Position numbers and translations under genes: made by a program
The notes under the pieces: model-generated
Databases searched by the model: none
What the model saw: only the letters and a program-made list of their open reading frames with translations
What the model was told of the DNA's origin: nothing
Virus record (IMG/VR): IMGVR_UViG_2778261571_000008
Source: a virus
Taxonomy: Duplodnaviria; Heunggongvirae; Uroviricota; Caudoviricetes
Reading direction: 5' to 3' (one strand)
DNA: 5,990 bases
Part shown: piece after piece, positions 1,405 through 5,990 of the stretch
Layout: each line of letters starts with the position of its first letter
Numbering within the stretch: position 1 is the stretch's first letter

Positions 1405-2310
1405 TTTCATCACCTCTTTAAAAAAGAGCGGTGGCTGAAAAATATGGAGGAAACAACCACCGCCGTGAACGAAAATAGGCTATATCGGAGAAGTTGATAT
1501 AAATATTTTAATCCCCGCGTCGTACGTGTGCAAACACGGCTTCATTGTCGAATATGGCGTTTTTGTGTAATTAGCAGATCTGGTTTTGATACCCGTCATC
1601 GATATTCAGTCAACTAAAAGGCTGGTTTTGGCCTAAGTGTTGAATGGCACTTTTGGAACGCGTCCGATTTCCACGGTTAATCAGCCACCACGATCCAGAC
1701 GGTAGAATGCGGCTTTCAGCCTGCTGAAATGTGTAACATTCCTGCGCTTTAACAAGATCGGGCTATCTGGTACAGATGGCGGCGGCGATCTGTATTTGGT
1801 GGCGGACTAATCTGCGCAGAATCCCGCTGATTTCTTGATGGCAATAAAGCTAACCATAGCGATTCTAAGCGCCTCATCTTTGCCGGTATGCAAACGGTCA
1901 GCCATGTCACATTGAGCGCGTCAGAGGCGCTACTGTGAAGCGGTGCTATAGCTGCGGCGTATCATTGCCAGCGTCATCGTCGTCACGGGAAAAGCTGTAC
2001 ATGCGGGGATCGAGATAGTCGATACAGAAAACCCCGTCATACAGGAAAGCGAGTGCCGTAGCGCAAGCGAAGGCACCAGGCATGTAGCTACGCGCTGAAT
2101 GCGAGTCACAACAGCTTAACAAAAGCACATACATCGCGATAACGCGGTAACACATCCGGCACCACATGCGTAACTGTGTGTTACCCCAGACGTGGCGCGG
2201 CTCTCAGGCTGATTTTGTCTTTTCCGGTCCCACATCTCGGGTACTTTCCAAAACTTTCTACTTTATAAAAATGGAGTAGAAAACAGAGTGAAATCTTTTT
2301 TTTCTGATTT

Positions 2311-2330
2311 ATCTGGTACCATCTGGTACC
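2311..2330. repeat. Perfect tandem 10-bp direct repeat ATCTGGTACC x2 (forward iterons)
   Basis: Read directly: atctggtacc atctggtacc. Each unit contains a GGTACC hexamer. Confidence 0.85.
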
Positions 2331-2366
2331 CATAGAATATATGTAACTACATCAATAACTTAAGTT

Positions 2367-2400
2367 GGTACCACATCCGGTCCCACATCGGTCCCACATC
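2367..2400. repeat. Three tandem inverted-orientation iterons (GGTACCACATC-C-GGTCCCACATC-GGTCCCACATC)
   Basis: Read directly; 11-12-bp periodicity, about one helical turn. The reverse complement GATGTGG(T/G)ACC matches the forward iteron ATCTGGTACC at 8-9 of 10 positions. Confidence 0.85.
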
Positions 2401-2423
2401 CTGCATCTGGTACCATTTTGACC

Positions 2424-2451
2424 AAAAAAAAGCCAACCCCGAAGGATTGGC
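2424..2451 (-). terminator. Rho-independent terminator downstream of the replication gene
   Basis: On the minus strand: hairpin GCCAATCC-TTCG-GGGTTGGC (8-bp stem, one mismatch, tetraloop) at 2451-2432, followed by eight T (plus-strand A-run 2424-2431). It lies 23 nt after the stop codon at 2477-2475. Confidence 0.75.
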
Positions 2452-2474
2452 GTGTTAAAAGTTAAACAATCTGT

Positions 2475-4064
2475 TTACTTGCTCGTAACCTCAGTCATCA
2501 CGTCACTTGCGCTTGCCATTTTGGCTACTTTCGCACGGTCACGCGCTGCCCTTAGTTCGTCGGCAACCTCAAACGGTTTTGCCTGTAGCCAGCGAACGTG
2601 ATTGCGGATAATCCATCCTCGCACTGGTTTTCCGTCAACCTTAACTTGTGGCGCGGCTACCATTCCCGCATCCTCAAACATACGGCGCTGTTTGTTCGTG
2701 ATCTGCGCGTCCACGTCTTCCAGAATGTACTCAGACAGATCTCTGTTGCTGATAATGTCAGAAGGCCAGTCAGCGATCAGTTCATCAAGATATACGCGTT
2801 CCAGCGGTTTGGCTGAGTTAATTGCCCGTAACTTATCCTCATCACACACAGGCGGCTGTTTAATATCGAACCCGCTCAGGTCACGCGTTGCCAGTTGCCA
2901 TCCTAACGCGTTAATCGCTTTGGGATCGCTTATCAGGTCATCAATGCGCTTCGCCATCTCCCTTGCCGCTTCCTTGCCGTATACATCCGCGTATTTGCCT
3001 GAGGTGTGACGGATGACAAACCAGCGGCGATCATGTTCGTCTATTGGCAGTGGGTTGTCATGGTTAGAACACACAAACCAGCGGCACGCGTTCCATTCTT
3101 CATACTTCGCGCCATATTTCACATTAACGCTGCGTACTGGCTCCGTTATCATCGCTTTAAGGCGATTAGCTGTACGGTATTGGCTGTTATCACCTTCCCG
3201 CACTTCGTCGCATGTTGCCAGAACCGCGCCAGCCAGTTCGCTGTTGAACTGCCCTTCAAGTAGCGCATGGATATTAACGCCAGATGCGCAGTTACGTCCT
3301 AACAGGTGTTTTAGGATGTCGCAGAAAGTTGTTCGACCAACGCCCTGAGTTCCGTTTGTGTAATGAAGAATGCCCCAGTGCGGTAGTACCTCAGGGTGCT
3401 GGATCATGTGCGCAATCCAGTTCACTACCGTTACCCACTTGTCACCGAAAAGCCAACGGCAATCATCATAGAATGCGCTGACGTCCGTTTCATTGTCTGG
3501 AAGCCAGATACGCTTTTTCCACAGGTTGAGGCATTTACGACCGCGCGGATCTTCGCAAATTACCGGGCGACCAGGTGCGCAGGTCAGGGCGTCAACAATC
3601 ATGCGCTTATCGCTCTCACGCCAGAGGCTAGTTGTCGGGACGGCCTTCATTTTCAACCCAGCACCCGCGCCGCCGCCAACGTCGATCATCGTTTTACTGG
3701 CGGCATTCATGTTTTTAAACTCTGACCATTTGAAATTACGGTAAGGCTCATCAAGATAAGCAACGCGTTCGCCGTCAGCCACCCAGACACATTTGGTCAG
3801 CATTTCATCCAACGTCATGATCTGCGGCTTCATGGCGTCAACGTCAAGCTGTTGCGGCTCCGTAGCTTTGACTGCGTTTTCCGCAATGCGCTGGCGTTCA
3901 GCTTCGCGCTCTTTGATCTGTTGTTCGGCGATCTCTACGACGCTGGCAAGCTCCTCGTCAGTAGGGCTAATGCGCACACCTGCGCTATTTAGCGGTATTA
4001 CATTTGCGATATTTTTTTCAGCTCTGACCTGGTCATCCGGGCCGTTTTGTGGCATATTAATCAT
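2475..4064 (-). CDS. Replication initiator: SF3 (D5/P4-alpha C-terminal-like) helicase-type protein, 529 aa, with atypical Walker A
   Basis: Motifs in canonical SF3 order and spacing: Walker-A-like HYTNGTQGVGRTTF (R codon at 3335-3333), Walker B AVLATCDEV (DE at 3209-3204), motif C WFVCSNH (N at 3065-3063). SD AAAGAGG 9 nt before ATG at 4064-4062. Followed by terminator and iteron origin. No separate primase domain was recognised by eye. Confidence 0.8.
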   Translation of the reverse strand: MINMPQNGPDDQVRAEKNIANVIPLNSAGVRISPTDEELASVVEIAEQQIKEREAERQRIAENAVKATEPQQLDVDAMKPQIMTLDEMLTKCVWVADGERVAYLDEPYRNFKWSEFKNMNAASKTMIDVGGGAGAGLKMKAVPTTSLWRESDKRMIVDALTCAPGRPVICEDPRGRKCLNLWKKRIWLPDNETDVSAFYDDCRWLFGDKWVTVVNWIAHMIQHPEVLPHWGILHYTNGTQGVGRTTFCDILKHLLGRNCASGVNIHALLEGQFNSELAGAVLATCDEVREGDNSQYRTANRLKAMITEPVRSVNVKYGAKYEEWNACRWFVCSNHDNPLPIDEHDRRWFVIRHTSGKYADVYGKEAAREMAKRIDDLISDPKAINALGWQLATRDLSGFDIKQPPVCDEDKLRAINSAKPLERVYLDELIADWPSDIISNRDLSEYILEDVDAQITNKQRRMFEDAGMVAAPQVKVDGKPVRGWIIRNHVRWLQAKPFEVADELRAARDRAKVAKMASASDVMTEVTSK

Positions 4065-4132
4065 GTTGAGTAGCCTCTTTTCGTTGCCTATTCACAGCCG
4101 TTCGATTCAGCACCGTAAACGGCTCCAACATT

Positions 4133-4161
4133 GCCCCGGTTGCGACGGGGCTTTGTTATTT
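4133..4161 (+). terminator. Terminator-like GC hairpin plus T-rich run, plus-strand orientation, in the leader between the second alpA-like gene and the replication gene
   Basis: GCCCCG-gttgcga-CGGGGC (perfect 6-bp GC stem, 4133-4151) followed on the plus strand by TTTGTTATTT (4152-4161). It overlaps the stop codon of the 4156-4401 gene. On the minus-strand mRNA the same hairpin forms but is not followed by a U-run. Confidence 0.3.
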
Positions 4162-4401
4162 CTGGTCTATGTATCTTCCGCATTGCTGTAAATCCCTCAT
4201 TAGCTCGTCTCTATGGATTTCGTACCACGCAAGCATGTCGGCTTTTAGCCATAACATCATGTTTCCGCGCCCTCGTGTCATAGGTTCCGGGAAATCCGGG
4301 TAACGACGCATTACGTGGTAAACTGAGCGCCGTGAGCGGTTAAGTAGTTCGCTGACATCTCTTACTGTCATGATGAAATCCTTCACCGTTTGGCCTTTCA
4401 T
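4156..4401 (-). CDS. AlpA-family / excisionase-like HTH DNA-binding protein (81 aa, or 71 aa from internal Met)
   Basis: Translation ...MTVRDVSELLNRSRRSVYHVMRRYPDFPEPMTRGRGNMMLWLKADMLAWYE fits the AlpA/Xis HTH pattern. SD AAAGAGGG 7 nt before ATG at 4401-4399; an alternative ATG at 4371-4369 has a GAAGGA SD. Stop TAA at 4158-4156 is 91 nt upstream of the replication gene. Confidence 0.7.
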   Translation of the reverse strand: MKGQTVKDFIMTVRDVSELLNRSRRSVYHVMRRYPDFPEPMTRGRGNMMLWLKADMLAWYEIHRDELMRDLQQCGRYIDQK

Positions 4402-4714
4402 GGTTCTGCCCTCTTTGTTAAAACTACACGATCACTGTAACCCATATTTTTAGCTATTCACAACTTTTCCCCATTTCAGCGACCATAAACGCAAAAACCC
4501 AGCGCTATGGCTGTTCGATGAATTGTTATCAGGATGTTTCCTATCCGACCAGTTAAACCAGCGACAGGTCAACATGTGACTATTGAGTTGCGTAATGATT
4601 TACTGCTGGAAAGGATAAACTCAGCTTCAGTGGCTCAATTTCCCGTTTTGCGTCTGTCAGGGCTATAAAATTCGTCTCAATTCTGTGAGATGCATCACAC
4701 TTTATGCCTGATAT

Positions 4715-4733
4715 TTATACAGTAACTGTATAA
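4715..4733. repeat. 19-bp perfect palindrome TTATACAGT-A-ACTGTATAA overlapping the LexA-like box
   Basis: Read directly. 9-bp arms with a 1-bp centre; chance expectation in 6 kb is about 0.02. It shares the ACTGTATAA arm with the LexA-like site, giving three alternating ATACAG/CTGTAT half-sites across 4717-4741. Confidence 0.8.
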
Positions 4734-4743
4734 CCATACAGGC
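4724..4743. promoter_or_regulatory. LexA-box-like site (SOS box), CTGTAT-N4-ATACAG
   Basis: aaCTGTATaaccATACAGgc: CTGT at 4726-4729 and ACAG at 4738-4741 with an 8-nt spacer; both 6-bp arms CTGTAT/ATACAG are perfect. It matches 14 of 20 positions of the E. coli consensus TACTGTATATATATACAGTA, including the whole invariant core. It is the only CTGT-N8-ACAG in the window. Confidence 0.45.
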
Positions 4744-5094
4744 CGAAAACCCGCTGTTTTACTGCCTATTTACCATAATGGATCTTGTGCGCACCATTTT
4801 CCGGTGATTGATTTCTGACCCTGTTTCGACGATAAAGCCATCCATTTTTCTCTGACTCGTAAAAGCTGGCATGAAATTTGATGTGGCGTGATTTGTTATG
4901 ATTGTGTTACCGCCAGTCTTGCCGCTGACGTCGGCTACGCGCGCGCATGTACATGTCCGAAAATTACCCCCATAAAAGCGCCCCTCATATAGTGCAAAAA
5001 CCCGGATGGCGCGGCTTTCGGCGGTTTTAGCATTGAAAACTAACTTCAAAAACGGCCCGCTATCGTTCGCTAACTACTCGCTAACCTCTCTGGC

Positions 5095-5867: not shown

Positions 5868-5990
5868 TTATTCCCCCATATAGAAATAGTCATCTAATTG
5901 ATCGCGTAGTTCTTTTGGTCCGTTAAACCATTCATCAATGGTCGCATTAAATACCGGATCGCCATCGAAGTAGGTTTTTGTGAAGTCGTC
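5868..5990 (-). CDS. orfA, C-terminal segment (enters window at 5990; stop TAA at 5870-5868)
   Basis: Reverse-complement translation from 5990: DDFTKTYFDGDPVFNATIDEWFNGPKELRDQLDDYFYMGE-stop. The first five codons are encoded by the 16-bp repeat and are in the same frame as the final DDFTK of the 1-322 segment. Joined product is 142 aa. Confidence 0.55.
   Translation of the reverse strand, partial: DDFTKTYFDGDPVFNATIDEWFNGPKELRDQLDDYFYMGE
5975..5990. repeat. Right copy of 16-bp terminal direct repeat TTTTTGTGAAGTCGTC
   Basis: Exact identity with positions 1-16. Confidence 0.9.

Follow-up and report, generated by a model that had tools for sequence, protein, structure and literature searches.

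How a small circular DNA that encodes neither a primase nor a polymerase is copied is the question raised by IMG/VR virus record IMGVR_UViG_2778261571_000008, a stretch of 5,990 nt assigned to the Caudoviricetes that is referred to here, at its full length, as the window. The first 16 nt of the window are identical to the last 16 nt (1-16 and 5975-5990), so that it closes into a circle of 5974 bp. Domain and profile searches of the open reading frames (ORFs) of this circle found no integrase, recombinase, polymerase, partition gene or structural gene, the last as stated in an earlier note made from the sequence, and none of its eight ORFs contains a primase, TOPRIM or Prim-Pol domain. The note had proposed that positions 2146-4401 are a self-contained, satellite-type replication module, which holds only if dependence on a host primase and polymerase is allowed. 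With that proviso, the comparative analysis described here indicates that this segment is probably the replicon of a circular, plasmid-like element of E. coli, and that it works like the replicons of the phage satellites known as SaPIs and PICIs.

In the mechanism that we propose, a gene for a small helix-turn-helix (HTH) protein and the adjacent rep gene would be transcribed as one unit ending at a terminator, and Rep would be a hexameric superfamily 3 (SF3) helicase of the D5/NrS-1/SaPI-Rep type with a C-terminal winged helix. The winged helix would read 11-bp iterons located 3′ of rep, which lie in opposed sets around two AT-rich stretches, and Rep hexamers on both iteron sides would melt 2241-2366 and self-load as the replicative helicase. 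Since the circle encodes no primase or polymerase, synthesis would need, and be carried out by, host DnaG and Pol III. Which dinucleotide is accepted at the variable position of the iteron (GATGTG-NN-ACC) would be decided largely by the wing segment around Rep residue 473 (Gln here), a segment that appears to be exchanged between relatives together with the iterons.

The Rep protein and the repeats downstream of its gene

Both genes of the module are on the minus strand, the 81-aa HTH protein (HTH81) being encoded at 4401-4156, directly upstream of rep (529 aa) at 4064-2475. The earlier description of the two as Shine-Dalgarno-led genes is correct, as both are ORFs and the ATG of each is preceded by a ribosome-binding site of the AAGAGG type, AAGAGG(G), 7-9 nt upstream. 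The identification of Rep as an SF3-helicase initiator is likewise borne out. It matches Pfam family PF19263 (DUF5906) with 78.3 bits against a cut-off of 27.6 (E-value 9.3e-22), residues 238-347 corresponding to positions 3-114 of the 114-position profile, so that a replication family is found for the 529-aa protein, together with weak matches to VapE-like proteins (3.6e-4) and to the P4-family primase C-terminal model TIGR01613 (primase_Cterm; 19.8 bits against a cut-off of 108.7). The latter score and the lack of a primase domain do not sustain the label P4-like that the module had been given. No match to Rep_3 was found in Rep, and phrog_1156, a family annotated as DNA primase, matches it at 1e-28 through its C-terminal part only. 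Among 1.8 billion representative proteins, 361 match Rep at E <= 1e-30, and most of them are primase-helicases of 700-1000 aa to which Rep aligns only over the C-terminal ~450 residues; hence Rep corresponds to the helicase and winged helix of such proteins minus the primase part.

The protein consists of a disordered or coiled N-terminus (residues 1-80), a beta-rich collar (85-190), an SF3 ATPase core (~210-355; 3000-3437, minus strand) with P-loop, Walker B, motif C and Arg finger, a helical linker, and a C-terminal winged helix (421-485; 2610-2804, minus strand), which is made up of helix 421-432, strand 437-439, helix 440-447, the recognition helix 457-465 and the wing 474-485. The AlphaFold (AF2) model of Rep (pLDDT 82, pTM 0.68) has as its best Foldseek match the NrS-1 helicase (6k9c; 3.4e-17, TM 0.52/0.65), followed by the SaPI replication proteins SaPI5 PriRep5 (7ola; 5e-8) and SaPI1 PriRep1 (7pds; 1e-7), and it also matches monkeypox virus (MPXV) E5, vaccinia D5 and African swine fever virus (ASFV) PrimPol. 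When the PDB was searched by sequence with phmmer, NrS-1 was the sole match (3e-12). By fold class the modeled Rep is thus an SF3/D5-type helicase, like the solved SF3 helicases that include the SaPI Reps, and helicase activity is predicted.

Conservation of the catalytic motifs was assessed in 149 sequences, namely the Rep of the window and the 148 nearest 50%-identity cluster representatives, which are mostly primase-helicases of 700-1000 aa. The P-loop, G238-T245, reads GTQGVGRT and departs from the canonical Walker A motif GxxxxGK[ST] in having Arg244 (codon 3333-3335) at the position of the Walker A Lys. Arg occupies this position in all 149 sequences, mostly as GxGRN; GxGK is the form seen in DUF5906 proteins at a greater distance. 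Rep also has Walker B (D286-E287), motif C (S333-N334) and an Arg finger (R346-R347). No variation occurs at G241, G243, R244, E287, S333, R346 or R347, 148 of the 149 sequences share N334, and D286 is nearly invariant. Because E287, S333, R346 and R347 do not vary and N334 hardly does, the ATPase site seems to be under selection.

The origin lies immediately downstream of rep, as it does in the relatives: rep stops at 2475, the terminator ends at 2424, the first iteron begins at 2414 and the last reaches 2146. The intrinsic terminator of the HTH-rep operon (2451-2424, minus strand) has an 8-pair stem at 2451-2432 with a four-base, UUCG-type loop and T8 down to 2424, and it is as strong as had been claimed, folding at -13.6 kcal/mol (z = -4.05; 0/200 shuffles equal it). 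In relatives the hairpin persists through changes from A-T to G.T and from T.G to T-A. The iteron sequence GGTMCCACATC, at two mismatches or fewer, has 10 matches in the window, nine of them in 2146-2414, against 1.7 expected (0/200 shuffles reach 10), and its core GGTMCCA has 10 matches, all within 2226-2415, against 0.77 expected. Allowing three mismatches adds an inverted copy at 2175-2185, the position of which is conserved in relatives, to give a total of ten copies, six in the plus-strand sense (starting at 2146, 2158, 2226, 2367, 2379 and 2390) and four in the opposite sense (2175-2185, 2310-2320, 2320-2330 and 2404-2414). The ten or more iterons around AT-rich DNA that the note had listed at 2146-2415 are therefore present in number, with the amendment that they run in both orientations and that there are two AT-rich stretches rather than one.

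Read on the rep strand from the terminator, the array starts with one inverted iteron (GGTACCAGATG on the rep strand; 2404-2414, minus), which is at the same position in all relatives with its core switched, and continues with three tandem iterons on the plus strand (2367-2377, 2379-2389 and 2390-2400; GGTACCACATC once and GGTCCCACATC twice) that have zero mismatches and 12- and 11-nt spacing. These are separated by the first AT-rich stretch (2331-2366; 36 nt, 78% AT) from two inverted iterons at 10-nt spacing (2310-2330, minus; position kept and core switched in relatives), so that this stretch lies between convergent iteron sets, bracketed by the tandem triplet and the inverted pair. The second AT-rich stretch (2241-2310; 70 nt, 74% AT, with a T8/A8 tract) is a candidate unwinding element that is highly conserved in the closest relatives of the window, and it is bracketed by the inverted pair and a single iteron, GGTCCCACATC, at 2226-2236 (plus). 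For comparison, the AT content of the whole window is 52%. Beyond a GC-rich spacer, TGGCGCGGCTCTCAGGCTG (2193-2211), that is conserved family-wide whatever the iteron type, the array ends with a degenerate group (1-3 mismatches) of one inverted and two direct copies (2175-2185, minus; 2158-2168 and 2146-2156, plus), the positions of which are kept and the cores switched in relatives. No DnaA box (TTATCCACA, up to one mismatch), integration host factor (IHF) site or GATC was found in the origin (2100-2470).

In classical NTPases, replacement of the Walker A Lys by Arg impairs hydrolysis, and one alternative, which we regard as unlikely, is that Rep is an initiator that binds and melts the origin but has lost its motor activity, and that host DnaB joins by recruitment once the AT-rich DNA is open, in the manner of classical iteron plasmids. 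Rep would then still bind the iterons but would not be the replicative helicase. The presence of Arg throughout the Rep clade, as opposed to the GxGK of distant DUF5906 proteins, speaks for this alternative, and SaPI Reps are known to bind and melt their origins without ATP (PMC9371898). It is countered, however, by the apparent selection on the remaining residues of the ATPase site, by a fold that matches active replicative SF3 helicases and by the lack of a DnaA box in the origin. A self-loading Rep helicase is the reading that we prefer, its motor function being the least certain element.

Paired changes in Rep and the iterons

The 12 relatives retain the terminator, the AT-rich stretches and the spacer, and their iterons are found at the same positions, with one core sequence per element. 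On the rep strand this core is GGTACC in six elements, GTAACC in four and GTCACC in two, while the window has a mixture of GGGACC and GGTACC. Such a concerted change of core at fixed positions is typical of sites bound by a protein that evolves along with them. When eight Reps were aligned, residue 473 (codon 2646-2648, minus strand) was the sole column that split three ways with iteron type, with Gln accompanying G(G/T)ACC, Val accompanying TAACC and Arg accompanying TCACC. The rule derived from these eight Reps held in five later elements, four with GGTACC and Gln and one with GTAACC and Val, and 0/5000 permutations of the labels gave any three-way column. This candidate specificity residue is at the start of the wing, directly after the invariant recognition helix KQRRMFEDAG.

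The partition also crosses the Rep tree, since the Rep of the window (Gln) is 91% identical to that of contig L011 (Arg), and the Rep of L026 (Val) is 92% identical to that of L028 (Gln). Within each pair the rep genes are 90-100% identical except at nt 1381-1500 (residues 461-500), where DNA identity drops to 60-68%, as it does in the iteron region. From these alignments, the wing patch (~120 nt) and the iteron cores look like a cassette by which origin specificity is exchanged. Reps at a greater distance (29-35% identity) each come with a separate array of short repeats just 3′ of rep; the elements concerned include a complete Proteus plasmid of 8955 bp, a complete Klebsiella plasmid of 6535 bp and contigs L015 and L016.

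HTH81, which is syntenic upstream of rep in all relatives, shows no such pairing. The protein shows 98.8% identity among the window, L011, which has other iterons, and L015, which has a 35%-identical Rep and a different origin, and therefore it cannot be the reader of specificity; in addition, neither its alignment nor that of HTH65, a second small HTH protein encoded at 1413-1216, has a column that follows iteron type. The two HTH proteins were thus ruled out as iteron readers by both the co-variation and the identity patterns. The earlier term alpA-like fits HTH81 in its position upstream of rep, but in sequence the protein is below the HTH_17 threshold (1.4e-4; 22.5 bits against a cut-off of 27), has no match to PF05930 (Phage_AlpA) and has only weak matches to excisionases and regulators in PHROGs. 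HTH81 is probably a regulator of the HTH-rep transcript, a role suggested by the alpA gene that precedes the DUF5906 'primase' of PICIs and PICMIs.

The element as a circle and its relatives

The circular form is evident from orf142 (142 aa), which is made whole by the junction (322-1 joined to 5974-5868), and E. coli chromosomal relatives align contiguously over both ends of the window. Of the sequences in curated collections, the nearest at the DNA level is pRHB04-C06_4, a complete plasmid of 8873 bp from a cultured E. coli. It is 77% identical over 1855-4071 with the same gene order and has a mobility call and no replicon type in its PLSDB record. Other relatives are complete plasmids in four further genera, and they include other small, non-mobilizable enterobacterial plasmids. 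Homologues of Rep with 74-91% identity are located on contigs of 5.6-10.9 kb, and terminal overlaps give sibling circles of 5581, 8660, 8853, 8903, 9012, 9114 and 9166 bp. In the chromosomes of 5426 complete E. coli genomes there is no match to the rep-origin DNA; only 1414-1567, the promoter end of the HTH65 operon, and 1659-1969, a short non-coding stretch, gave matches.

The circle yielded no further replication gene, no second cluster of repeats and no origin of the RNA type. Rfam, with a permissive threshold, returned nothing beyond a chance match of 19 bits, and no tRNA was found, from which we conclude that there is neither an RNA origin of the ColE1 type nor a tRNA attachment site, and further repeat clusters are absent from 4402-5094 and 1414-2145. 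That the element and its relatives exist as circles and plasmids, with no other replication function present, argues that the module is sufficient for maintenance. Three apparent copies of a unit at 251-nt spacing were attributed to chance, as they align at only 51%. A perfect Xer site of the dif/cer type, GGTGCGCACAA-GATCCA-TTATGGTAAAT, is located at 4768-4795 on the minus strand (0/200 shuffles). The same site is found in the other mini-circle without a resolvase (L011, 2425-2452; L012, 3094-3121) and in one chromosomal element (L004, 10145-10172), is not present in relatives with a serine recombinase, and probably serves for the resolution of plasmid multimers by host XerCD.

All credible genes of the circle are on the minus strand. 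Upstream of HTH81 and beyond a non-coding stretch of 693 nt are orf97 (5388-5095) and orf114 (5862-5518). On the other side of the origin are HTH65 (1413-1216), which is of the excisionase type, an HNH endonuclease gene (1212-682; HNH_3 and PHROG HNH families) that HTH65 overlaps or abuts within 682-1413, orf103 (655-344) and orf142 (322, over the junction, to 5868). The promoter region upstream of the HTH65 operon (1414-1567) is ~80% identical to the equivalent region of the chromosomal relatives, which indicates that HTH65 and the HNH gene form a separately conserved module. A PADLOC search returned only generic HTH and homing-endonuclease matches.

The stretch of ~730 nt between HTH65 and the iterons (1414-2145) has no convincing gene, as it has short ORFs only, its frames shift between relatives and its indels are not multiples of three. 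It has conserved blocks even beside an unrelated Rep type, such as ATGCCTGGTGCCTTCGCTTGCGCTACGGCAC at ~2046-2076, which also adjoins the 29%-identical Rep of L016, and a (GAY)4 run is present at ~1964-1975. This DNA may be non-coding or a decayed gene, and additional signals for origin function, priming or packaging could lie in it. A sequence resembling the lambda cosN, GGCGGCGATCT at ~1786-1796, was dropped as a candidate because it is not conserved in relatives.

HTH65, the HNH gene, orf103, orf142, orf114 and orf97 are common to elements integrated beside intZ, between eutA and eutB (L002, L003 and L004), which is the site of the cryptic prophage CPZ-55 in E. coli K-12. The protein of orf97 is 55% identical to YffM, and 37 nt at 4909-4945 are identical to CPZ-55 DNA between yffQ and yffP; as the latter are inside CPZ-55 rather than at its ends, they were ruled out as an attachment site. 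The chromosomal elements at this site do not have the rep-origin module of the window. Larger relatives of 8.7-10.9 kb (L005, L008-L010, L013-L016, L027, L030 and L031) have a TerS-like gene (Sf6_terminase), a serine recombinase and a YffP-like gene of 195-197 aa, some have a protein of 726-788 aa, and the Proteus plasmid pW47-1 has a gene annotated as phage tail tape measure protein. This gene content suggests that the family consists of phage-related, possibly satellite, plasmids. In the earlier alternative of a satellite-like or plasmid-like lifestyle it is the plasmid-like part that stands, by virtue of the closed circles and complete plasmids, while a phage-satellite lifestyle comes from the phage-related genes of the relatives together with the HNH gene and is plausible but unproven.

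The accessory genes shared with integrated elements at the CPZ-55 site, the TerS-like gene of the larger relatives and a small HTH regulator upstream of rep, as AlpA is in PICIs and PICMIs, would also accord with a module that is silent until a helper phage induces it, the circle being an induced or packaged form or one maintained by another function. We consider this improbable, and somewhat more so than a Rep that lacks motor activity, since the circle lacks both an integrase and an attachment site, the two resolvase-less mini-circles have a perfect Xer site, and relatives have been deposited as complete plasmids from E. coli and four further genera. Moreover, phage records have no match to the whole window or to 1414-2145, and in a scan of viral contigs there was a single relative, at 25% identity (a scan of genome contigs gave none). 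It is very improbable that the repeats are instead operator, partition or incompatibility sites of a small HTH protein, or a packaging or recombination site, for although two HTH genes flank the repeat region, and operators and centromere-like sites can take the form of short repeats close to the end of a gene, neither HTH alignment tracks the iterons, HTH81 hardly changes beside three different Rep/repeat types, the window has no TerS, resolvase or partition ATPase, and the repeats bracket AT-rich DNA and co-vary with a residue of Rep.

Several points weigh against a SaPI/PICI-like replicon that is read and opened by Rep. No primase is encoded, unlike in most SaPI, PICI and P4 modules, and Arg244 in the P-loop would leave helicase activity not assured, though the whole clade has this Arg and the remaining catalytic residues vary hardly or not at all. 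A Foldseek search with the winged helix alone gave a match that was not significant. The co-variation comprises 13 sequences and perhaps three or four independent switches, and neighbouring wing residues also vary. The ~730 nt of partly conserved DNA beside the iterons could hold further functions of the origin.

A helicase initiator with a repeat origin downstream is a layout already known from phage satellites. What appears to be new, on comparison of the sequences, is the pairing of specificity between the Rep wing and the iterons and the link to untyped small plasmids of enterobacteria. The replicon type has no name in plasmid typing schemes and it ties the replication strategy of PICIs and SaPIs to small plasmids of E. 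coli. In addition, the natural series of Rep and iteron variants, in which one wing residue pairs with two base pairs, is a compact case for the evolution of initiator-origin specificity, and the Rep-iteron pairs could serve in mutually compatible mini-replicons. The shared genes suggest that the K-12 cryptic prophage CPZ-55 is one of a family of satellite-like elements with both integrated and plasmid forms. We advance only tentatively, as an idea more doubtful than the replicon itself, that the window is a minimal member of an undescribed, CPZ-55-related family of episomal phage satellites of 5.6-11 kb in the Enterobacteriaceae, which would persist as plasmids by means of a primase-less GxGR Rep and would have their specificity re-programmed by exchange of the wing cassette (473 Q/V/R) together with the iteron core, such that co-resident relatives escape incompatibility.

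Comparison with known replicons

Classical iteron plasmids (Rep_3/RepA, pi and TrfA) use an initiator of the Rep_3 type with two winged helices (WH-WH), direct iterons of 17-22 bp and adjacent DnaA boxes. The window does not resemble them, as it has no Rep_3 match, its 11-mers are in both orientations and there is no DnaA box. P4 alpha contains a helicase of the same superfamily and a C-terminal winged-helix domain that binds the origin by recognizing short repeats, and P4 can persist as a plasmid. However, P4 alpha uses separate ori and crr sites while the origin of the window is directly 3′ of rep, and the sub-threshold TIGR01613 score and absence of a primase domain place Rep outside the P4 alpha type. 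The best match in both structure and sequence is the helicase region of the NrS-1 primase-polymerase (6k9c, 6lrb), at 17-20% identity and with the C-terminal domain included, although NrS-1, the replicase of a phage, also carries at its N-terminus a prim-pol domain that Rep does not have.

Plasmid phage satellites (PISP and cf-PISP) have been proposed in Vibrio, and the window is like them in being small, integrase-less and episomal with a satellite-type gene content (PMC13230959). They carry parA/repA and capsid or terminase genes, however, whereas the window has a PICI-type helicase Rep and no structural genes. In the PICIs and PICMIs, DUF5906 proteins are already markers of replication in Gram-negative elements, and the window has in common with them a DUF5906 replication protein, a small gene of the AlpA/HTH_17 type upstream in the same orientation, and a host range that includes enterobacteria (PMC10803314, PMC10111431). 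The differences are that PICIs and PICMIs, in whose modules alpA is followed by a 'primase' of the DUF5906 or DUF3987 family, are integrated elements that require int and alpA to excise, while the window has no integrase, that HTH81 is under the AlpA and HTH_17 thresholds, and that Rep does not have the N-terminal primase part found in most of its relatives.

In its layout the module matches the SaPI replicon, and the order of regulator, rep, terminator and iterons given in the earlier note is indeed that of the SaPIs (PMC9371898). Several differences are evident. Rep has only 12-15% sequence identity to SaPI Reps, it has no separate or fused primase and has Arg at the Walker A Lys, the iterons are 11-mers rather than the penta- or hexanucleotides of SaPIs, and the carrier is an integrase-less 6-kb circle in Enterobacteriaceae rather than a chromosomal island. 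On the other hand, the origin of a SaPI is located immediately downstream of rep and contains six to twelve short iterons, with an AT-rich centre that has at least two iterons on each side in opposite directions, and the SaPI Rep reads these iterons by a C-terminal winged helix and is a helicase that self-loads (PMC9371898). In the same way as Rep1 of SaPI1 and PriRep5 of SaPI5 from S. aureus, the Rep of the window combines an SF3 initiator-helicase with a C-terminal winged helix, and its origin, 3′ of rep, has ten iteron copies in opposed directions around AT-rich DNA, with at least two on each side.

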